A stretch of 64,000 nucleotides of DNA from an archaeon (GCA_018657525.1 JABHWZ010000003.1:14840-78839), one strand, 5' to 3'; shown: positions 6,611-50,919, counted from the first letter of the stretch. Made by a program: numbers and translations. The notes: generated by a model from the sequence alone, not told the origin.

Positions 6611-7219
6611 TTGAATATTATGGAAAAAAATAGGTTGATTTTAATCGGCGGGTGTCCTGGAACAGGTAAAACAACTTTGGCAATTAAACTTGCGGATAAA
6701 TTGGGGATTGATCAGGTCGTTTCTACTGATACTGTTAGGGCGTGTTTAAAAAGTGTTTCTGATTGTGATTCTAACCCTTTTTTATTTACTGTTACTCATG
6801 AGGCTTGGAAGATTCTTGGAGAGAGAACAAATGAAAATATTTGGGGGGGATTTCTCAAACATTGTGAGATAATTTATTCAAGTTTAAAATTTATTATAAA
6901 TAAATCTGCAATAGAGGGGAGAGATGTAATTATTGAAGGAGCGCATCTTATACCAAATTTTTGCAAATTTATTGATACAAGTAAATTTGATGTTCACTTC
7001 TTTTTTTTAAGAGTTGAGTCTGATTCTGGTTTAATCAGAAGGTTTGATTTGAAAAATTCTTGTAGAAGGATTAATTATTCTGGATGGGGGAAAAATTTAA
7101 AAATTATACGTTTTATTGAGGGTAAAATTTTTAAGAAATTGCCAAATAATGTTTTTGTTTTGAAAAATGAGGATCTTATTTTTTCTTTAAATAAATGTTT
7201 GGAGACTATTTTTAAATGA
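6611..7219 (+). CDS. P-loop kinase, 2-phosphoglycerate-kinase-like
   Basis: LIGGCPGTGKTTLAIKLADKLGIDQVVSTDTVR resembles the 2PGK/COG2074 N-terminal signature. Confidence 0.5.
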   Translation: MNIMEKNRLILIGGCPGTGKTTLAIKLADKLGIDQVVSTDTVRACLKSVSDCDSNPFLFTVTHEAWKILGERTNENIWGGFLKHCEIIYSSLKFIINKSAIEGRDVIIEGAHLIPNFCKFIDTSKFDVHFFFLRVESDSGLIRRFDLKNSCRRINYSGWGKNLKIIRFIEGKIFKKLPNNVFVLKNEDLIFSLNKCLETIFK

Positions 7220-22176: not shown

Positions 22177-22459
22177 AAAACGGATTAATGTTAGATATTG
22201 TTAAACCTAAAAGACACCCGCTGGTTTCTTTTGAACTTCCTCAAAGCTCGGCTCGGCGATTTCCAATTGCCTCCTGCGAAATCGCAAGGTTGTTAAGACA
22301 CTCGTTGATTTCTTTTGAACTTCCTCAAATATCGGTTCGGCAACATCTTTCAATAACTCAAGTCCACGCTCGTAAATTTGAAATTTGCCTTCGGAAGTTA
22401 ATTTCGCGTAAACTTTCGGCCTCCGAGGAATGTTGTGGGCTTCAACAAGGAGATAGAAA
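22173..22459 (+). repeat. 287-nt composite insert beginning with a diverged copy of the cdc48-2 start; the track ORF 22173..22463 is not considered a real gene
   Basis: ATGAAAAACGGATTAATGTTAGATATTGTT versus ATGAAAAATGGATTGATGTTAGATATTGTT at 22460. Internal 50-nt repeat (22213-22262 and 22297-22346), the GGAGGCAA-loop hairpin, and module F1. Confidence 0.85.
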
Positions 22460-26067: not shown

Positions 26068-26583
26068 TTATTGTTTAACTGCTTTTTCTTTGACTCTTCT
26101 GTTTTTTGGAATGAAATTTGAAATCTTTTTTTCTGAAACTTTTCCACAGCCCCAAAAATCTTCTTTGAACTTTATTACTTTGAATCCTCTAGTGAATTTT
26201 TCTGGTTCATTTGCAATTTCGTTTTCGGATTTGGAGGATAGATAATTTATTTCATCAAAATATAATTCTTCTCCTTTGAGATATTTTTTTGCTTGTTCTT
26301 CAGTGAGTTCTAAAATGTTTTCTGTTATTTGGTCTTTTAGTATGTGTGTGCCCTCGATACTCAATCTAATTTCGTTTTCTCCAGGGATTAATTTAGCAAA
26401 GTAAGTCCCAACTCTTTCTATTGGTATTGTCTTTTCAAGTTCCCATATCTCAGGAGCGGTTAATGAACCTTGATATAAAAATAATCTTTCTTCTCCTCGC
26501 TGAACAATTAATCCTTGAACTTCTTGAATTCCAAATTGTTTTTTTAGAAGTTGAACTATCTTTTCTTTTTCTTTTCTAGTCAT
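26068..26583 (-). CDS. Nip7-like (pre-PUA/PUA) RNA-binding protein
   Basis: The N-terminal half resembles Nip7 (..RLFLY.., VGTYFAKL). It lies next to the NSUN methylase. The 36 extra N-terminal codons of the track ORF are encoded by a repeat element. Confidence 0.45.
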   Translation of the reverse strand: MTRKEKEKIVQLLKKQFGIQEVQGLIVQRGEERLFLYQGSLTAPEIWELEKTIPIERVGTYFAKLIPGENEIRLSIEGTHILKDQITENILELTEEQAKKYLKGEELYFDEINYLSSKSENEIANEPEKFTRGFKVIKFKEDFWGCGKVSEKKISNFIPKNRRVKEKAVKQ

Positions 26584-26629
26584 TATTTTTAATCCTTTAT
26601 ATTCTCTGGAAAATTTGTGTTGTTTCATT

Positions 26630-26734
26630 GCGAGACAACCCCTTGTTTTCCTCGCGCTCCTTCCTCGAAGCTCTGATACTCCGAAGGGCACGAGAGGGTA
26701 GCATCTTTAAATTGCCTCCGTCGGATGCCACATG
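26630..26734 (-). repeat. 105-nt structured element, copy 1 (immediately 5' of an ATG on the minus strand)
   Basis: Near-full-length match to 42612..42716 in the opposite orientation. Contains the GGAGGCAA-loop hairpin and the GGGCACGAGAG module. Confidence 0.9.
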
Positions 26735-26760
26735 AGCTGATTAATTTATTTTGTTTTATT

Positions 26761-26966
26761 TTTGATATTTTCATTCTTTTATTTTCCTAAATTTACTTAT
26801 GAAGAACCCCTCTGCTCGTGAACCTTCATTGTTATTGAATCTTCTGCTTGTCATTTTATTTTTTTGAATTTTGAAATGAAGAACCCCTCTGCTCGTGAAC
26901 CTTCATTGTTATTGAATCTTCTGCTTGTCATTTTATTTTTTTGAATTTTGAAATGAAGAACCCCTC
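26761..26966 (-). repeat. triplicated NSUN gene 3' end (77-bp units) plus a codon-diverged displaced end
   Basis: Units start at 26799, 26876 and 26953. See findings. Confidence 0.9.
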
Positions 26967-28031
26967 GGTATTATTATCATGAGGATAAACTCTGCAACAT
27001 AATTTTACTTTTGGGTTGAAATTTATTTTTGGATTTTTTTCAGACTTTGCTGTTCCCTCCCGCGAACCACCCTGGGACTCGCTTAGCTCGCTTGATTTAA
27101 TTAACGCAAAGTCTTCTTTTTTTGGATTCCATTCTGTGATTCCTTCTCGACATTTTATTGGGAGTTCTACTTTTTTGATTTTAATTTTATCTCCAAATTC
27201 TTCTAGGGCCCAACTTACTATTGCTTCGTTTTCTTCTGGGGCGTGAGTGCAAGTTGAGTAAATTATTTCTCCGTCAACTTTTAAAATTTCAAAAGCGTGT
27301 TTGAATAATCTTTTTTGAATTTGTGGGAGTGCTTTTGTTACATTTTTTATGTTCCACATTTTGTAGGTTTTATAAGCGCTTCTTAAAGTTCCTTCGCCAG
27401 AACACGGGGCGTCCACAAGGATTTTGTCAAATTTTATTTCTGGGTTGAATTTTGCTAATCTTTTACAAAGTGCGGCTCCTTCTTTTCTGCTGATTATTGT
27501 ATTTGTGACTCCGCATCTTTCTAGGTTTGAAGAAAGAATTCTGAGTCGGCCCATTGAAATTTCATTGGCGATTATTGCTCCTTGGTTTTCCATTGCTGCT
27601 GCTATCTGAGTTGTTTTGGATCCGGGTGCTGCGGCTAGATCTAGGATTAATTCTCCTGCTTTTGGTTTGAGTGCAATTATCGGAAGCATTGAGGCAAGTT
27701 CTTGAATATAATAATATCCGAGTAAATGTTCTTCTGCCCTTCCGAGTTCTCCTGGTTCAAGTGAGATTAAATTATTTTCAGAATTATATTTTCCTTCGAT
27801 AATCATGACTTCCGGGTTTGATTCCCACGGGCGAGATATTTTCCATGTTTTTTCTTCTAATCTTTTTTTTAATTTTTCAGGAGATATTTTTAAGGGGTTG
27901 CAACGGATAGAATTTACTGGTTTTATTTTTAGGATATCCAAATAGGATTGAAAATCTTTTTTATCTGGAAGAAGCTGTTTTATTCGTTCTTCGAATTCAG
28001 GTTTCATTTCTGGAATTTTTATTTTTGTCAT
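26928..28031 (-). CDS. NOL1/NOP2/Sun-family RNA cytosine-C5 methyltransferase
   Basis: DLAAAPGSKT SAM motif; DAPCSGEG and YSTCT catalytic Cys motifs; C-terminal EGFFI. Confidence 0.85.
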   Translation of the reverse strand: MTKIKIPEMKPEFEERIKQLLPDKKDFQSYLDILKIKPVNSIRCNPLKISPEKLKKRLEEKTWKISRPWESNPEVMIIEGKYNSENNLISLEPGELGRAEEHLLGYYYIQELASMLPIIALKPKAGELILDLAAAPGSKTTQIAAAMENQGAIIANEISMGRLRILSSNLERCGVTNTIISRKEGAALCKRLAKFNPEIKFDKILVDAPCSGEGTLRSAYKTYKMWNIKNVTKALPQIQKRLFKHAFEILKVDGEIIYSTCTHAPEENEAIVSWALEEFGDKIKIKKVELPIKCREGITEWNPKKEDFALIKSSELSESQGGSREGTAKSEKNPKINFNPKVKLCCRVYPHDNNTEGFFISKFKKIK

Positions 28032-30252: not shown

Positions 30253-32871
30253 TTAAAAATCTCCAAGAGTCATTTGTTTTTTGCCCTCGAGAATTTCTTT
30301 GATATTGACATCTAAAACTTGGAAAATATTTTCTACTGCCGGAAGAATTTGTTTGTTCAAATAATATTCAATTTCGTATTCTCCTTTTTCAGTTGGAAGT
30401 TTTACTTTATCTCGTACGAGTTTTACTTTTTTCCCTCCTGTCTCGGCGATGTAATATTCAATTAAATTCCCTTGAGAAACAGGGATTTCTTGTTCTTTCA
30501 TTTTTTTTGCTGCAATCACATGTGGGCCCTGAGCTTTGTATTCTGAGAGGGGTTTTTTCAGTTGGGTTTTAATCATTAATTCTTTTAATTTAATTTCTCT
30601 GTTTTTTATTTTTTTTACAATTTCTTTGATATAAATTAAGGCTTTTTTTTCGTTTCCGTCTTTTAAAACTAACTGGATAATTTTGTTTTGTGTTTTTCTT
30701 GCTAGTTTACACCAGTCTCTTCGAACTGTTTCAAAACCGCGGATTTTTATTTTGTCTTCTTTGTCGATTAAGGCGTATTTCTTTTTCGCACCTGTTGTTC
30801 CTGCGCGAGTTGTTACCCAAAGTCCTTTTTCAAAAAATCCTTCAAGTTCGAGTTCCATTATTCCTGGAAGTTTGGAGTTGATTTGTTTTAGAGTTTCTTT
30901 GACTTCTTTTTTGGTCTTTTCGTTGATTAAAAATGCGATTGAATCTGTGTCAGAGTAAATTGTTTTGTAGCCTTCTTTGTCAATTCCCTTGATTGTGTTT
31001 TTAATGAAGTCGCGACTGATTGCGGTTGCTGCTCCAGAGGCTTCAGGACAATAATATCTTGCGCCGAAAAATCCCATATAACCATAAGATGCGTTTGCTA
31101 AAAGTTTGAAAGCATTGCTTCGCGCTTTTTTTAAAACGTCTGGTTTTTCAAACAGTTCTTTTTTGTATTGTTTTCTTTTTTCAATTATTTCTTTTAATAG
31201 TTCTGGAAAGAAACCTGTTTTTTTTGTGAAGTAAACTTTTTTTCCCAGGACTTCAGCTTCGACGGAATCTTTTTCTTTTTTTTCTAGGAGGGTTGATTTT
31301 GATAAATTAAATGTTACTATTATGCTTGGCCAAAAACTTGTGAAATCAAACATTGCAATGTTTTCGTATAAATTTGGGATTGGTTCGAAGACAAATGCGC
31401 CTTCGTATTTTTCTCTTTCTCTTCTTTCTTGGATTTCTTTGTAGCCTGCTTTTCTTTCTGGAATTTCGTTGAAGCGTTTTAAATTATGTAGAATATAATC
31501 TTCAACATTTGAAGACATTCCTTTCCTTGAGACATCAAAGGGGGGTTCTTGAATTACTCTTGAGAATTCTAAAATGTCTGGCCAGAATTTATTGAATAAC
31601 TGGAATGTTAAGAGTGAATCGTGCAAATTGTATTCATAATATTTCTCCCATTCGTTTTCTTTTATTTTTGAAGAGTGTTTAAATTCAAAGTCTTTTTTTG
31701 TGTCGCCTAAAAATTCTTTTGAAACTTCATTTAGCGAGAGAGTTTCTGATTGCATGTACTGAGAGTATGCGGTTCTGATGAATTTTAATAAGTCAATATG
31801 GGGAATGCCTTTTATTTTGCATTTTAAATCTCTGCCTCCGCCGGTTCTTGAAAATCTTGGTTGTGAGTCGTCGAGTCCTAGGTTTAATTTAATGTTGAAT
31901 TTTTGAGCTCTTGCTTTTATGTAGGGTAAGTCAAAACCGTCTGAATAATATCCTACTAAAAAATCAGGGGAGATTTTTTTTACATATTCAATAAATTTTT
32001 CAATTAGTTCTGCTTCGTCCTCGACATATTCCACTTCATTTGATTTATGTTCTGATGGCTCCTGACCTCGCTCGGAATTTTTATTTTTACCTTCGGAATT
32101 TTTTCTCGCAAAATCACTCGTTTTCCATGTTATAACTTTTTTGAAATTGTCTGAAACTAAAGACACCATAAGAATTTCTCCTTCCCCGATTCCGATTTCA
32201 TCTGTTTCAATATCAAAGGCAAGGGTTTTTGGAGTAAAAGTTTTTTTGATATCCTTTTCTCTAATTTTTTTTATTGTGTTTACTTTTATGCACATATCAA
32301 CATCAAGTGCCATGTCAATGCCTCCGAATTCTTCTGAGTTGTTGAGTAATTCTCCTTCAATTTTATACCAGTTTAGTGGGACTAATTCTTTTTCTATAAT
32401 GTAATGGCTGATATATCCCAAGTCATAGCCTCTTCTTTTGTCAATTTCTGGGAAGTCGATGTGGCTTGCAATGTCGTGCATGTCTTTATAGTTTGTCGCG
32501 AATACTTTTAGGGCCTGGACTTTTTGCCCAAGGAAATTTTTTTCATGTAACTCTACTTTTTCAACTTTTGTTTTTCTGCCTTTTACATCTAATTGAATTT
32601 TAAGAATTTTTTTAGTTATTTTTTCAACACTGCTCAGTGTGCCTTTCTTTGCGGACCGATCGGCATACTCCAAAAAGTTTGAATTCTGGAGCAAGTGCTT
32701 GGGTGTTTTGATTTGAGAAATTTTTGGTTTTAGAATTGCCCAGAGATAAACTGGACATTCATCTATAATGCAAATTTGTTTGCCTGTTTCGTTTCTTCCG
32801 ATGATTCGCGCGTAGTTTCTTCCTTTAAAATCAAAGTAATCGTAGTCAATTGGGATGAATTTTGTTTCCAT
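30253..32871 (-). CDS. polB: family-B DNA polymerase
   Basis: Exo motifs FDIET and YSDGFDLPYI. Pol motifs SFWPSIIV, KLLANASYGY and YSDTDS. C-terminal QMTLGDF is PIP-like. Start at METKFIPIDYDYF; upstream track codons are rejected. Confidence 0.95.
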   Translation of the reverse strand: METKFIPIDYDYFDFKGRNYARIIGRNETGKQICIIDECPVYLWAILKPKISQIKTPKHLLQNSNFLEYADRSAKKGTLSSVEKITKKILKIQLDVKGRKTKVEKVELHEKNFLGQKVQALKVFATNYKDMHDIASHIDFPEIDKRRGYDLGYISHYIIEKELVPLNWYKIEGELLNNSEEFGGIDMALDVDMCIKVNTIKKIREKDIKKTFTPKTLAFDIETDEIGIGEGEILMVSLVSDNFKKVITWKTSDFARKNSEGKNKNSERGQEPSEHKSNEVEYVEDEAELIEKFIEYVKKISPDFLVGYYSDGFDLPYIKARAQKFNIKLNLGLDDSQPRFSRTGGGRDLKCKIKGIPHIDLLKFIRTAYSQYMQSETLSLNEVSKEFLGDTKKDFEFKHSSKIKENEWEKYYEYNLHDSLLTFQLFNKFWPDILEFSRVIQEPPFDVSRKGMSSNVEDYILHNLKRFNEIPERKAGYKEIQERREREKYEGAFVFEPIPNLYENIAMFDFTSFWPSIIVTFNLSKSTLLEKKEKDSVEAEVLGKKVYFTKKTGFFPELLKEIIEKRKQYKKELFEKPDVLKKARSNAFKLLANASYGYMGFFGARYYCPEASGAATAISRDFIKNTIKGIDKEGYKTIYSDTDSIAFLINEKTKKEVKETLKQINSKLPGIMELELEGFFEKGLWVTTRAGTTGAKKKYALIDKEDKIKIRGFETVRRDWCKLARKTQNKIIQLVLKDGNEKKALIYIKEIVKKIKNREIKLKELMIKTQLKKPLSEYKAQGPHVIAAKKMKEQEIPVSQGNLIEYYIAETGGKKVKLVRDKVKLPTEKGEYEIEYYLNKQILPAVENIFQVLDVNIKEILEGKKQMTLGDF
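32622..32672. repeat. hairpin element AACACTGCTCAGTGT..TTTGCGG.., copy inside polB (in frame)
   Basis: Aligns with 39901..39951. Confidence 0.8.
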
Positions 32872-32967
32872 GTTTTGGTAAAAGACTGTAGATTTATATA
32901 TTTGATTGTATTTTTTGTTACCCCTCTTAAATGCTAAATACCAAAGATTTATATAGTCCTGGGCCCT

Positions 32968-33429
32968 ATGAGTAATATGGATACAACTGGTTATTCGGAA
33001 GGATTTCTCTCCAGTGAAGGAGGAGCACTTGTATCTGTTGGTGTCGCAAATCAACCAGATCCTGTTGATTATGATGCTTTGGAAGTAAAATATGGCCGAA
33101 CAAAGGATCAAGAACCTAGCGTTAAAGAATTGATTGATATTTCTGAAGAATCGTGTAGGGGAAGACAAGTACTTTTAGGAGATGAATTTGAGACTCTTGA
33201 AGATAATGCTGAGTTAAGGAAAGCTAGAAATTTATTGGGCAGATGTGATTTTGCTTGGGGTGTTTGGGGCGAAGATACTTGGAGGATATATGGTTTGCCA
33301 GTTCTTAGAGCGGTTGAAAAAGAGTATGGTCTTGCACCTATTAAATCTAGGAAAATTCCTCTTTCAAAGAAACTTTGGATGAGAAGAGATTTTTTAGCTA
33401 ATAAAATAACTGAACTGCAACATCAATAA
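32968..33429 (+). CDS. hypothetical acidic protein
   Basis: 153-aa ORF divergent from polB. No motif. Confidence 0.35.
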   Translation: MSNMDTTGYSEGFLSSEGGALVSVGVANQPDPVDYDALEVKYGRTKDQEPSVKELIDISEESCRGRQVLLGDEFETLEDNAELRKARNLLGRCDFAWGVWGEDTWRIYGLPVLRAVEKEYGLAPIKSRKIPLSKKLWMRRDFLANKITELQHQ

Positions 33430-33468
33430 ATATTTATATTCTGTTTTTCTTAGTTTTATTAATAGAAT

Positions 33469-33561
33469 AAATTTAATCAGCCCAATTCGCTCTCGCTCAT
33501 TTTCCCAACCGCGAGTCCTATTTGCTGAAATTTCATAGAAATTTCAGTTATGAATAAATTT
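33469..33561 (+). mobile_element. MITE-like element A, copy 1 (93 nt, 10-11 nt terminal inverted repeats)
   Basis: AAATTTAATCA...TGAATAAATTT ends, internal CAGCCCAATTCGCTCTCGCTCATTTTCCCAACCGCGAG, and a subterminal hairpin. Confidence 0.75.
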
Positions 33562-33602
33562 ATTAAAAAGTAAAAGGAATAAAATTTAAAAATAAAAATA
33601 AA

Positions 33603-34640
33603 ATGGGATTAAATATTCGAGATATTATACCGAAAAAAGAATTGCAACTTGAGAGTTTGAATGGGAAGACTCTTTGTGTTGATGCGTTTAATACTTTATA
33701 TCAGTTTTTGTCAAGTGTGCGGCAGATGGATGGGACGCCTTTGATGGATTCTAAAAAACAGATTACTTCTCATCTTTCTGGGATTCTTTATCGTAATGCG
33801 GCTTTGTTAGAGCAAGGAATTAAATTAGTTTATGTTTTTGATGGGAAGGCCCCAGATTTAAAAGCGAAGACTCACAAAAAGAGAAAGGAAGCTAAAGAAC
33901 TGGCTGCTGAAAAATATGAAGAGGCAAAGCAAGAAGAGGACATTATGAGAATGAAAAGATATTCTAGCCAATTAGTTCGTTTAGATGATGAGATGATTAA
34001 AGAGAGTAAAGAATTATTGATTGCTATGGGAGTGGCAATTGTGCAGGCACCGTCAGAGGGAGAAGCAGAGGCAGCTTATTTGGCAAAGAAAAAAGAAGTT
34101 TATGCTGCAGCGAGTCAAGATTATGATAGTTTGCTTTTTGGAACTCCTCGTTTAATTCAGAATTTGACTTTGGCAAGAAAGAGAAAAACTATTTCAGGTT
34201 ATCGAGAAGTAAATCCTGAATTAATTGATTTGCAAGAAGTTTTGGATAGATTGGAAATTGATTTAGATCAATTAATTTGTTTGGGAATTTTGGTTGGCAC
34301 AGATTATAATCCGAAGGGGATTCCAGGGATTGGACAAAAGAAGGCATTACAAATTGTTCAGAAATTTAAACAGCCGGTTTTAATTTTTAAGGAAATCAAT
34401 GAAAAAATTTCTTCTTTGCCAGAGGAAGATCAATTTGATTGGAAAGAAATTTTTGCATTGTTTCATAAACATCCTGTTAAGGATGTGGAATTTGATTTTG
34501 GGAAAATTGATGAAGATAAAATTCGTGAAATACTTGTGACAAGACACGAATTTTCTGAAGAGAGAGTTGAAAAACAGATTGAGAGATTAAGGAAAATTGA
34601 AGAGAAAGGAAAACAAAAAGGTTTGGATAAGTGGTTTTAA
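33603..34640 (+). CDS. fen: flap endonuclease 1
   Basis: MGLNIRDIIP.., VFDG, EGEAEAAYL, GTDYNPKGIPGIGQKKA (H3TH). C-terminal PIP box QKGLDKWF. Confidence 0.95.
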   Translation: MGLNIRDIIPKKELQLESLNGKTLCVDAFNTLYQFLSSVRQMDGTPLMDSKKQITSHLSGILYRNAALLEQGIKLVYVFDGKAPDLKAKTHKKRKEAKELAAEKYEEAKQEEDIMRMKRYSSQLVRLDDEMIKESKELLIAMGVAIVQAPSEGEAEAAYLAKKKEVYAAASQDYDSLLFGTPRLIQNLTLARKRKTISGYREVNPELIDLQEVLDRLEIDLDQLICLGILVGTDYNPKGIPGIGQKKALQIVQKFKQPVLIFKEINEKISSLPEEDQFDWKEIFALFHKHPVKDVEFDFGKIDEDKIREILVTRHEFSEERVEKQIERLRKIEEKGKQKGLDKWF

Positions 34641-34645
34641 GAAAC

Positions 34646-34738
34646 AAATTCAATCAGCCCAATTCGCTCTCGCTCATTTTCCCAACCGCAAACCCTAATT
34701 GTAAAATTTCTTTTAGAAATTTTATTATGATTGAATTT
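34646..34738 (+). mobile_element. MITE-like element A, copy 2
   Basis: AAATTCAATCA...TGATTGAATTT. The first 50 nt are nearly identical to copy 1. Confidence 0.8.
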
Positions 34739-34791
34739 AGAAATTAAATATGGAATAAAAAATAATTGAAATATATTTTACAAAATAAAGT

Positions 34792-41636: not shown

Positions 41637-42055
41637 AAGATTTTGATGACTTTCTAAAAAGAGGGGTGGTTAAAAAACAATCTGTTAATGAGCCAAGAGC
41701 TAAAGATTTGGTTTCTGAAGCTGAAAGAAAATTAAGTTCAATGAATCGTGTTATTAAGAAAATAGGAATTGATGACGCAAATGCTAATGATATTATTGAA
41801 AATTGTTGCGATATTATTCTTAGTTTAATACGTTCGAAAATGTTTTTGAAGGGGTTTAGCGCTTCTGGAAGTGGAGCTCATGAAGCAGAAGTTTCTTTTT
41901 TAAAAAAATTGGAATTTAATGAACAACAAATCGAATTTATTAATTCTTTGAGATATTTTAGGAATGGAATTTTGTATTATGGAAAACGATTTGATAAAGA
42001 ATATGCAAAAAAAGTAGTCAAATTTTTAAAACAGGTAAAGGTTAAATTAAAATGA
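41633..42055 (+). CDS. HEPN-like domain protein (partner of the MNT)
   Basis: 140-aa all-helical protein with a 4-nt overlap with the MNT gene. The R-x4-H position reads FRNGILYY (His replaced by Tyr). Confidence 0.5.
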   Translation: MKDFDDFLKRGVVKKQSVNEPRAKDLVSEAERKLSSMNRVIKKIGIDDANANDIIENCCDIILSLIRSKMFLKGFSASGSGAHEAEVSFLKKLEFNEQQIEFINSLRYFRNGILYYGKRFDKEYAKKVVKFLKQVKVKLK

Positions 42056-42987
42056 GATCTTATAGTGTTTTGGGGAATATAGCGTTGGTTAATTTTCCGA
42101 GGGAATTTAAAGGAAGCAAAATTAATTTTGCTAAGAAAATTTTGAAAGAGAACAAATCAGTTAAGACTGTTTTGGAAAAAGTGGGAAAATTTTCTGGGAG
42201 GTTGAGGAAGATTTCAACTAAATGGTTAGCGGGGGAAAAAAATAAAGAAGTTTTGTATAAAGAAAATAATTGTGTTTTTAGATTTAATATTGATTCAACT
42301 TATTTTTCTCCGAGGCTGAGTAATGAGCGGAAAGAGATTGCAGGATTGGTTAAGAAAGATGAAAATGTTTTAGTTATGTTTGCAGGGGTGTCACCGTTTT
42401 CAATTGTTATTGCGAAGAATTCAAAAATTGGGCGTAGTTCTGCGTACCCTAAATTGCGGAATGCTAAGGTATATTCAAATGAGATAAATCGCGAAGCAAA
42501 TAAATACGCGAAGTTAAATATTGAATTAAATAAATTGAAAGAGAGGGTTGAATTGTTGCCTGGTGATATCAAAAAAGTTACTGAGAAAATTTTGAAGGGG
42601 TGGAGGGAAAACCATGCGGTATCTGTAGGAGGCAAAGAAAAGATGCCGCCCTCTCGTGCCCTTGAGGGTATCAGTGTTTCGAGGAAGGAGCGCGAGGAAA
42701 ACAAGGGGTTGCCTCGCTTTGATGTGATTGTAATGCCGCGACCGCAGTTGAAAGATAGTTTTTTGGAGCAGGCGTTTAAGTTGTCAAAACGCGGAACGCG
42801 AATTTATTATTATGATTTTTGTAAAATTGATGCTCTTGAAGGAACAAAGTATTTTGATTTGATTATTAAGAAGATTAAAGATGAGGCAAAAAAAGCTGGG
42901 AAGAAAATTAGAATTGTGAATAAGAAATTGGCGGGAGATATTGCTCCGTATAAGTATCGTGTGCGGGTTGATTTTATAATTTTGTAA
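42052..42987 (+). CDS. Trm5/Taw22-like tRNA (m1G37) methyltransferase carrying two in-frame repeat insertions
   Basis: YFSPRLSNER, VLVMFAGVSPFSI, YSNEIN, and FDVIVMPRP (NPPY-equivalent). Confidence 0.7.
   Translation: MRSYSVLGNIALVNFPREFKGSKINFAKKILKENKSVKTVLEKVGKFSGRLRKISTKWLAGEKNKEVLYKENNCVFRFNIDSTYFSPRLSNERKEIAGLVKKDENVLVMFAGVSPFSIVIAKNSKIGRSSAYPKLRNAKVYSNEINREANKYAKLNIELNKLKERVELLPGDIKKVTEKILKGWRENHAVSVGGKEKMPPSRALEGISVSRKEREENKGLPRFDVIVMPRPQLKDSFLEQAFKLSKRGTRIYYYDFCKIDALEGTKYFDLIIKKIKDEAKKAGKKIRIVNKKLAGDIAPYKYRVRVDFIIL
42612..42716 (+). repeat. 105-nt structured element, copy 2, in frame inside the Trm5-like CDS
   Basis: Encodes ..HAVSVGGKEKMPPSRALEGISVSRKEREENKGLPR.. between conserved Trm5 motifs. 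Confidence 0.9.
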
Positions 42988-45095: not shown

Positions 45096-45181
45096 TAAAA
45101 AATTCCTTCTTTTTTCATATTTTATTTTATGTCTTCAGGGTTTTTAATATTTTGTAGTTTGAAACAAATTTTACCAAAATA

Positions 45182-49099: not shown

Positions 49100-49171
49100 T
49101 TTATTTTAAGTCCTCCATTTTAATAATGTTGATAATGGATTTGAATTTATAAATAATTGTGTGATTCAAAG

Positions 49172-50885: not shown

Positions 50886-50919
50886 GATACCCTAAAGGGC
50901 ACGAGAATCCTTGCAGTTA
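50886..50919. repeat. about 34-nt insert (GATACCCTAAAGGGCACGAGAATCCTTGCAGTTA) between two copies of the rfcS 3' end
   Basis: See findings. Confidence 0.85.

Follow-up and report, generated by a model that had tools for sequence, protein, structure and literature searches.

Rickettsia palindromic elements (RPEs; Ogata 2000, 2002, as summarised in PMC10969869) are presented in that summary as short, hairpin-forming dispersed repeats of ∼100 to 150 nt that lie between genes and also in frame in many unrelated housekeeping genes of a small AT-rich genome, where they are apparently translated as an extra surface loop while the fold of the host protein is kept. We analyzed a stretch of 64,000 nucleotides from an archaeon (GCA_018657525.1, JABHWZ010000003.1:14840-78839; henceforth the window, with positions counted from its first letter), in which a repeat copy, e1, interrupts in frame a gene of the Trm5/TYW2 family of tRNA methyltransferases. 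RPEs are the closest known phenomenon to the repeat family of e1, which resembles them in all the traits just listed except length. It is set apart by its DPANN archaeal host and unrelated sequence, and by a frame-agnostic reading: as far as the summary goes, RPEs have a single coding frame with a conserved peptide product, whereas the present element uses all three sense frames. Moreover, it measures 85 to 105 nt, is strictly gene-sense, lies mostly 0 to 1 nt from start codons and carries a Shine-Dalgarno (SD)-like motif.

Among mitochondrial systems, the GC clusters reportedly inserted in the yeast VAR1 gene and the 'byp' elements that Lang et al. are said to have described from Magnusiomyces in 2014 are likewise GC-rich, hairpin-forming short inserts in an AT-rich genome, also within coding sequence, and some of the GC clusters are translated in frame (VAR1). 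They are, on the other hand, organellar and eukaryotic and are not known for start-codon association or sense-only polarity; in addition, byps disrupt the reading frame and depend on ribosomal bypass, whereas all internal copies of the present element keep the frame. [quoted passage not shown] They occur in either orientation, in contrast to the present family (sense in 57/57 gene-associated copies), which has no terminal inverted repeats (TIRs), no clear target-site duplication (TSD) and no partner transposase that was noticed. Finally, the bulge-helix-bulge (BHB) introns of crenarchaeal cbf5 are also short structured inserts in an archaeal protein-coding gene, but the present element lacks a conserved BHB at its junctions, is always a multiple of three without stops when inside a gene, and occurs outside genes as well. 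In the literature on Pacearchaeota/DPANN MITEs and on archaeal in-frame palindromic elements we found no description of the element family.

A repeat copy in frame within a Trm5-family gene

The locus comprises the following features:

42052..42987, plus strand: Trm5/TYW2-family tRNA methyltransferase gene, 311 aa (open reading frame (ORF), Pfam and PDB matches)
42613..42717, plus strand: element copy e1, long form, 105 nt or 35 codons (HAVSVGG...KGLPR); repeat alignment, covariance model 90.5 bits, E 3e-18
42616..42649, plus strand: hairpin P1 of e1, arms 42616-42623 (GCGGTATC) and 42642-42649 (GATGCCGC), loop with GGAGGCAA
42653..42670, plus strand: long-form-specific 18-nt stretch CTCGTGCCCTTGAGGGTA with a small internal hairpin, from alignments
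42692..42717, plus strand: hairpin P3 of e1, arms GCGAGG (42692-42697) and CCTCGC (42712-42717)

The host ORF matches PF02475 (TRM5/TYW2) with 98.2 bits against a cut-off of 28, as well as PF25133, and its product matches the solved structures of Trm5b (5yac, E 3.9e-30), Trm5a (5wt1/5hji, E 4e-24) and MJ0883. It consists of domains D2-D3 only, without the N-terminal D1 domain, and both motif I (VLVMFAGVSPF) and the beta4 motif (FDVIVMPRP) are kept and aligned to the solved enzymes. By these matches the product is a Trm5/TYW2 family member, for which m1G37 methyltransferase activity is predicted.

The PF02475 match is broken into two stretches by the element-derived segment. Copy e1 lies in frame between GDIKKV (beta3/alphaC) and FDVIVMPRP (beta4, motif IV), contains no stop over its 35 codons, and has a GC content of 55-58% versus 32% in the AT-rich window. 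The alignment to Trm5b runs through residue 176 (GDIKKV) and resumes at residue 222 (FDVIVMP); at this site the solved Trm5b and Trm5a have 2-3 residues (Trm5b residues 258-261 span it) where the host has ∼45. The gain from e1 is 35 residues, or ∼39 counting the junction; a peptide that spans the junction reads GLPRFDVIVMPR. Compared with the reverse complement of 26630-26734 (copy e2, described below), e1 is 84-87% identical over 105-110 nt, and the two have an exact 31-mer and an exact 15-mer in common, for each of which 0.00-0.03 matches are expected by chance; the 31-mer was found in no shuffle. The 18-nt long-form stretch is common only to e2, L109, L112 and L120 and is missing in most other copies. 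An SD-like GGGGTTG (42705-42711) lies in the P3 loop. In the database representative of the same Trm5 protein (P0001), residue 205 (∼42664), inside e1, is changed from E to Q, a population variant.

The initial annotation had proposed a Trm5-like gene interrupted in frame by a structured dispersed repeat, on which ORF, Pfam and repeat alignment agree. It had rightly recognized an inverted copy of 26630-26734, placing it at 42612-42716, 1 nt off the actual position.

An AlphaFold2 model of the host protein, with an input alignment of 53 orthologs, had a mean predicted local distance difference test score (pLDDT) of 83 and a predicted template modeling score (pTM) of 0.82. Values of pLDDT below 50 were confined to residues 128-136 and 196-209, that is, to e1 and a second, shorter extra segment. 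Both are gaps relative to the solved Trm5a/b and lie in loops of the Rossmann fold, alphaA to beta2 for the short segment and beta3/alphaC to beta4 for e1. The model predicts both to be low-confidence loops on an intact enzyme core.

Taken together, 42613-42717 is a copy of a dispersed non-autonomous repeat, RPE-like, which sits in frame in Trm5 and is probably translated rather than spliced. The element lies, in sense orientation, in a surface loop between beta3/alphaC and beta4 of the Rossmann fold, and would stay in the mRNA instead of being excised as an intron. The ribosome most likely reads through it, which would give an intact enzyme with 35 extra flexible-loop residues. Fold-compatible placement in a surface loop is shown for the Trm5 case only, by the gap relative to solved structures and the low-pLDDT loop on the confident core of the model.

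The Trm5 site in orthologs

The ortholog set comprised the 120 closest homologs (55-67% identical, 253-320 aa) from metagenome-assembled genomes labeled Pacearchaeota, Woesearchaeota and Nanoarchaeota. At the e1 site, 51 of them have no insert and 69 have an insert of 16-66 residues, which, together with the 2-3 residues of Trm5a/b, confirms the earlier statement that the residues are extra relative to homologs. At least 22 of the 120 carry an insert recognizable as this element: subfamily 1 reads ..SRKEREENKG[CLF]PR directly before FDVIV, and subfamily 2 reads ..REGRLSEGNRRCPR at the same place. Four other inserts resemble a degenerate form, four have an unrelated hairpin sequence (TQGRTPKNSFQEFLQG), and the remaining 39 are unclassified, some being of low complexity. 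The unrelated hairpin sequence (..GGGCGTACCCCGAAAAATTC..GGGGCAAA) is short, lies in frame in the same Trm5 loop, and is found in L016 (10505-10580), L030, L045 and L055.

On a tree of the Trm5 core, presence and absence of the insert require at least 21 changes, versus 38.6 for a random distribution, and the nearest relatives of the window Trm5 are insert-free. Among 72 genome loci parsed at the DNA level, all 12 insert-bearing Trm5 genes are in frame. In L083 (protein P0010) the whole element is read in another frame, which is open and has a compensating junction, and in P0017 an extra 20-residue insertion is nested within the element, again in frame. The initial annotation had looked to repeat-free relatives for a comparison. 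Homologous segments are indeed present at this site in the 22 or more orthologs above, but those relatives carry the family elsewhere in their genomes and are not repeat-free. This speaks for recurrent or old insertion at a hot spot rather than for an ancestral Trm5 segment.

The segment might instead be a lineage-specific functional loop of Trm5, for instance a charged arm contacting tRNA, with its likeness to other loci being secondary. It is charged (KEREENK), more than half of the orthologs (69/120) have an insert in this very loop, and the AlphaFold2 model extends helix 173-189 into it with moderate confidence. We nevertheless consider this quite unlikely: several sequence classes, unrelated to each other and of widely differing length, are represented among the inserts found here; P0010, and in part subfamily 2, use another frame of the same DNA; this DNA recurs upstream of genes and within unrelated proteins; and 51 of the 120 orthologs and all solved homologs do not have the segment.

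A dispersed family with copies in and before genes

A copy outside Trm5 is present in L030, another genome, in frame in endonuclease III (EndoIII). Metagenome contigs were scanned with a 22-nt core of the element, so that metagenome copies are ascertained via this fixed 22-mer; the scan returned 57 loci, 47 of which are AT-rich and hold a whole element, while ∼10 were discarded as chance matches within a GC-rich (64%) bacterial gene. The same 22-mer had no match in the viral contigs scanned. A covariance model (R1) built from 40 copies detected 67 copies in 1.4 Mb of related DNA, including diverged subfamilies and two further window copies (60514-60600 and 22206-22290). The family is thus GC-rich and dispersed in Pacearchaeota-type DPANN genomes. 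Its copies fall into four contexts:

38/67 copies: ending 0 nt (24) or 1 nt (14) before the ATG of a long ORF
14/67 copies: deep inside ORFs (Trm5 x6, PolB x2, EndoIII x2, ERCC4, a second methyltransferase, LigD-PE, one unknown)
5/67 copies: in-frame fusion near the N-terminus (GatE x3, RFC, LigD-PE)
10/67 copies: tandem, truncated or otherwise placed

Hence 19 of the 67 copies are in frame within ORFs, in several unrelated protein genes, and every gene-associated copy is sense to its gene. Neither this strict polarity nor the placement directly at start codons had been noted in the initial annotation. The copy in the second methyltransferase occupies the same structural site as in Trm5, directly before the beta4 motif FDLIIFNPPY, and the PolB copies (L034 4923-5010 and L080 13064-13148) are diverged and in frame in the exonuclease domain. 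A separate protein search yielded an MGMT-like protein (P0124) with the element just before the IPCHRV motif. Tandem copies occur in L046 and at 22.2 kb in the window. At the orthologous loci PheRS-beta, RFC, S3Ae and Trm5, different genomes carry different subfamilies, which suggests that copies move or are exchanged between loci.

Protein searches with short element peptides gave 6 matches for a six-frame concatenated profile and 1 for a 42-aa frame-0 profile, in a set of 5.8 billion sequences where E-values are too harsh for a 30-residue match. Rfam returned no family at gathering score or E up to 10 (best around the element 10-20 bits, E ∼1-8), and its matches in the whole window are two tRNAs only.

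Reading frames, hairpins and an unlikely removal from the mRNA

All three sense frames are used across hosts (SRKEREENKG, RGRSARKIKG, FEEGARGKQG), and each is stop-free in 62-68% of 60 copies, versus 22% in shuffles of the same composition and 15-53% for the antisense frames. As had been suggested for e1, the scarcity of stops is inherent to the repeat and is no sign of a conserved peptide. Because three frames are in use, a conserved functional peptide is ruled out, and as judged from the aligned copies the conserved entity is the nucleic acid.

Across 60 copies, both partners have changed in 8/8 pairs of P1, and 98% of cells are paired; for P3 the figures are 5/6 pairs, across subfamilies, and 96%. 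The covariation score of the whole structure is 0.395; shuffles give 0.19 (0/500), and slid partners give 0.06-0.10. Single-sequence folds of e1 and e2 are no better than those of shuffles (z -0.2 to -1.3), the structure emerging only through covariation.

A GC-rich structured insert within an AT-rich gene could also be removed from the Trm5 mRNA, as a BHB intron via the splicing endonuclease (cf. cbf5), by other processing, or by a byp-like ribosomal bypass. The flanks were screened for BHB-like pairing, as the initial annotation had envisaged, and a lenient arrangement was indeed present around e1 and two other internal copies, more than in shuffles. It is, however, missing in 5 of 8 internal copies and variable in position where present, with weak helices of 4 bp including 2-3 G-U pairs, and a BHB intron was rejected on these grounds; two of the three arrangements at e1 would delete the conserved FDV codons. 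Furthermore, no Rfam family, ribozyme or intron model matches. All internal copies are a multiple of three and stop-free, with 1-nt length variants compensated, which would be unneeded if the element were excised. Because of these three lines (inconsistent BHB, intact frames, compensated variants), we regard removal by splicing or bypass as very unlikely and retain translation through e1 as the favored reading.

Points that weigh on mobility and translation

Several observations tell against e1 being a translated copy of a mobile repeat. First, 69 of 120 orthologs have an insert exactly here, which indicates a hot spot or an old feature and does not imply recent insertion. Second, no TIRs were found: the ends read WTG-YGR... 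and ...CCTCGC, and the inverted repeats are the two internal hairpins. There is also no clear TSD (many copies have WTG at their 5' end and again in the 3' flank), and no transposase partner was noticed in 1.5 Mb of loci, where no systematic transposase search was made. Because none of these three was found, mobility is deduced from the distribution of copies alone. Third, the 3' 50 nt of the element are 90-96% identical between genomes, whereas flanking Trm5 DNA is 67-80% identical, a comparison that includes the pair window/L062, not ascertained via the search pattern. Selection acting on the element, or exchange that is still going on, would account for this better than passive selfish DNA. 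Finally, covariation was counted on an alignment fitted to the model, and we infer translation through e1 and the absence of RNA-level removal from frame conservation alone.

Two candidate duplications gave no consistent match. A 3-nt ATG TSD fits the start-adjacent copies and is mismatched in internal ones, the WTG ends differing in e1 (ATG vs TTG), L030 and L095; a long TSD between upstream flank and gene start, for which flanks were compared by eye, was inconsistent. With regard to an IS200/IS605-derived origin, the P1 and P3 hairpins are present and the WTG of the 3' flank is conserved, a target too short for diagnosis.

Start codons, leaders and upstream ORFs

The genes that follow the 38 start-adjacent copies encode ribosomal proteins S3Ae, S10, L37Ae and L44e, EF-1beta, PheRS alpha/beta, SRP54, RFC, RNase J and HerA. 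In these copies, the GGGGTG/AGGTG of the P3 loop lies 7-9 nt before the ATG, which is the SD spacing expected from the archaeal 16S 3' end. Most window genes have a TATA box of the TTTATAAA type ∼22 nt before their ATG (gene starts at, e.g., 45096-45125 and 49100-49121), and an SD-like motif is found in 9/54 genes; because of this box and the few SD-like motifs, window mRNAs are suggested to be mostly leaderless. Start-adjacent copies usually have another ATG 8-40 nt upstream of the element, and in 25/31 cases the ORF opened there crosses the element, its stop falling between -4 and +13 relative to the main ATG, with ATGA and TAATG overlaps occurring. At the window HerA and RFC genes, where the site is empty and other genomes have the element, mini upstream ORFs (uORFs) of 5-7 codons end on or next to the main ATG. 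If translation began at the ATG that the element itself has at its 5' end, the resulting N-terminal extension would share the gene's frame in only 9/24 copies, which is no enrichment, and this idea was dropped.

The ATG after the element is replaced by ATT, ATA or CTT in L111, L116 and L128 (GatE) and in L030 15544-15639 (RFC). In L111 GatE, the only in-frame start is an ATG within P1, 12 nt past the loop GGAGG. In such copies the element seems, as read from the sequence, to donate the SD, the start codon and a 19-residue N-terminal extension. A degenerate copy in L108 (1176-1330, minus strand, 23.6 bits) immediately precedes a same-strand tRNA-Val gene, ending at its 5' end. What the element follows may therefore be the 5' end of a transcription unit and not the start codon itself.

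These features bring to mind leader RNAs, with which the family shares covarying structure, sense orientation and a position 5' of genes. It is possible, although we do not favor it, that the family is mainly a cis-acting mRNA module, a structured 5' leader with an SD-like GGTG and/or a bridging uORF that couples ribosomes to the start, the Trm5 copy being a tolerated by-product. Such a role would accommodate the 38 copies placed 0-1 nt before a housekeeping ATG, the GGTG 7-9 nt before it, the mostly leaderless genes of the window, the 25 crossing ORFs that stop by the main ATG, the mini-uORFs at the empty HerA and RFC sites, the covarying hairpins, and an element core more conserved than flanking coding DNA. 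It leaves the 19 copies inside ORFs without a leader role, and the family is neither confined to leaders nor evolving with the locus, as the element tree does not follow loci and subfamilies differ at PheRS-beta, RFC, S3Ae and Trm5. AT-rich sequence read out of frame would in any case bring stops soon after a GC-rich element, and the read-through rate (81%) exceeds the baseline (62-68%) only modestly. Moreover, the 5' ATG of the element shares the gene's frame in 9/24 copies only, and one degenerate copy adjoins a tRNA gene.

The data fit a model in which only sites crossed by ribosomes tolerate the element; the statistical excess is modest, and composition would lead one to expect part of it. 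Extending this, we put forward as a speculative and rather doubtful proposal a mobile module that would be kept only where ribosomes cross it in sense, either inside proteins in any frame or in uORFs leading from a leaderless start to the main ATG. For the housekeeping genes of leaderless DPANN genomes it would be a transferable cassette for starting translation, with an SD-like site, hairpins and at times an ATG of its own; selection on the mRNA would maintain both the hairpins and the absence of stops from its frames.

A second, short insertion in Trm5

The other extra segment of the host protein is the following:

42427..42462, plus strand: short insertion IGRSSAYPKLRN, 12 codons, residues 126-137 (ortholog alignment; gap vs Trm5a/b)

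It is somewhat GC-enriched, lies between helix alphaA (..SIVIAKNSK) and strand beta2 (AKVYSNEIN), and corresponds to a 12-13-residue gap in both Trm5a and Trm5b. The insertion is missing in 118/119 orthologs, and P0044 has a different sequence at the site. Its sole significant relative is L089 6812-6832 (20/21 nt, ∼73% over 41 nt), which is read in the same frame (SAYPKLRN) as the tail of a small ORF. It represents an in-frame insertion that is independent of e1 and sits in a different loop. The GC-rich patch reported in the initial annotation is therefore a real extra segment, of 12 codons at 42427-42462 instead of 13 residues. Its proposed relation to the ACCCTAATTG block of 'MITE-A' did not hold: only ∼10 nt are alike, which is not beyond chance, the best match being that in L089. 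With 3 mismatches allowed, a 16-mer of the patch matches at 3 places in the window, where 0.5 would be expected; MITE-A (33466-33562 and 34643-34739) contains none of the three, and this link was dropped. The motif GGCGTACCC is common to the short insertion, the L089 ORF tail (6790-6850) and the hairpin inserts at the other Trm5 site in L016, L030, L045 and L055, which hints at a putative second small repeat family.

The MITE-A repeat itself is a 97-nt direct repeat of 77% identity whose two units lie on either side of a FEN-1-like gene (33603-34640).

Other copies and repeats in the window

Besides e1, the following sequences of the family lie in the window:

26630..26734, minus strand: element copy e2, long form, covariance model 83.7 bits, 3' end 1 nt before an ATG
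60514..60600, minus strand: diverged copy of subfamily 2, 33.7 bits, E 6e-5, ending exactly at ATG 60513
22206..22290, minus strand: degenerate copy, 24.7 bits, E 0.008, between two AAA (CDC48-like) genes
50886..50906, minus strand: 21-nt fragment of the long-form-specific stretch (20/21), blastn E 4e-4, intergenic and upstream of a minus-strand gene

The ATG after e2 opens the frame of a PUA-domain ORF (26071-26592; Pfam PF13636), the flank reading ...TCTCGC followed by AATGAAA. Copy e2 had been described as non-coding and open in a different frame from that used in Trm5; two of its three sense frames are stop-free, and the Trm5 frame is open as well. Beside e2, three 77-nt tandem units (26737-26966) repeat the end of an RsmB/F-like methyltransferase gene (ORF 26928-28031, minus strand), namely its final codons (..EGFFISKFKKIK*) together with the flank downstream of them. 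PF13636, here in 26071-26592 (minus strand), is normally the C-terminus of RsmF, and the RsmB/F-like gene may be split at the tandem cluster next to e2.

The gene after the 60514-60600 copy encodes, by its Pfam match, phenylalanyl-tRNA synthetase beta (58870-60513). A 41-codon ORF (60514-60630, minus strand) starts in an ATGA overlap with the stop of the upstream gene (60628-60630), passes through the element and terminates at position +5 relative to the ATG of PheRS-beta, and looks like a bridging uORF. The 22206-22290 copy is antisense to both neighbors and is the sole window copy not sense to a neighboring gene; around it, a cluster (22177-22459) combines degenerate element copies with short tandem repeats (D18, D19, D7). 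The window PolB gene (30256-33168, minus strand) has a degenerate insert SDFARKNSEGKNKNSERGQEPSEHKSNE (∼32050-32113, repeat D7) at the same site as the element in PolB of two other genomes, and a separate 26-residue insert closer to the N-terminus.

Implications

Essential enzymes in some of the smallest archaeal genomes (Trm5, PolB, EndoIII, RFC, GatE) carry repeat copies in frame that are predicted to be translated. The summary cited above does not describe, for RPEs, a strictly gene-sense orientation, the reading of all three frames or an exact placement at start codons. There is also a practical cost: the inserts inflate or split domain matches, push ORF calls upstream of true starts (e.g. 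P0125), and introduce non-homologous columns into marker-protein alignments used for DPANN phylogeny. If the leader and uORF reading is true, the family would open a direct way to study the addition and regulation of internal translation starts in leaderless archaea.

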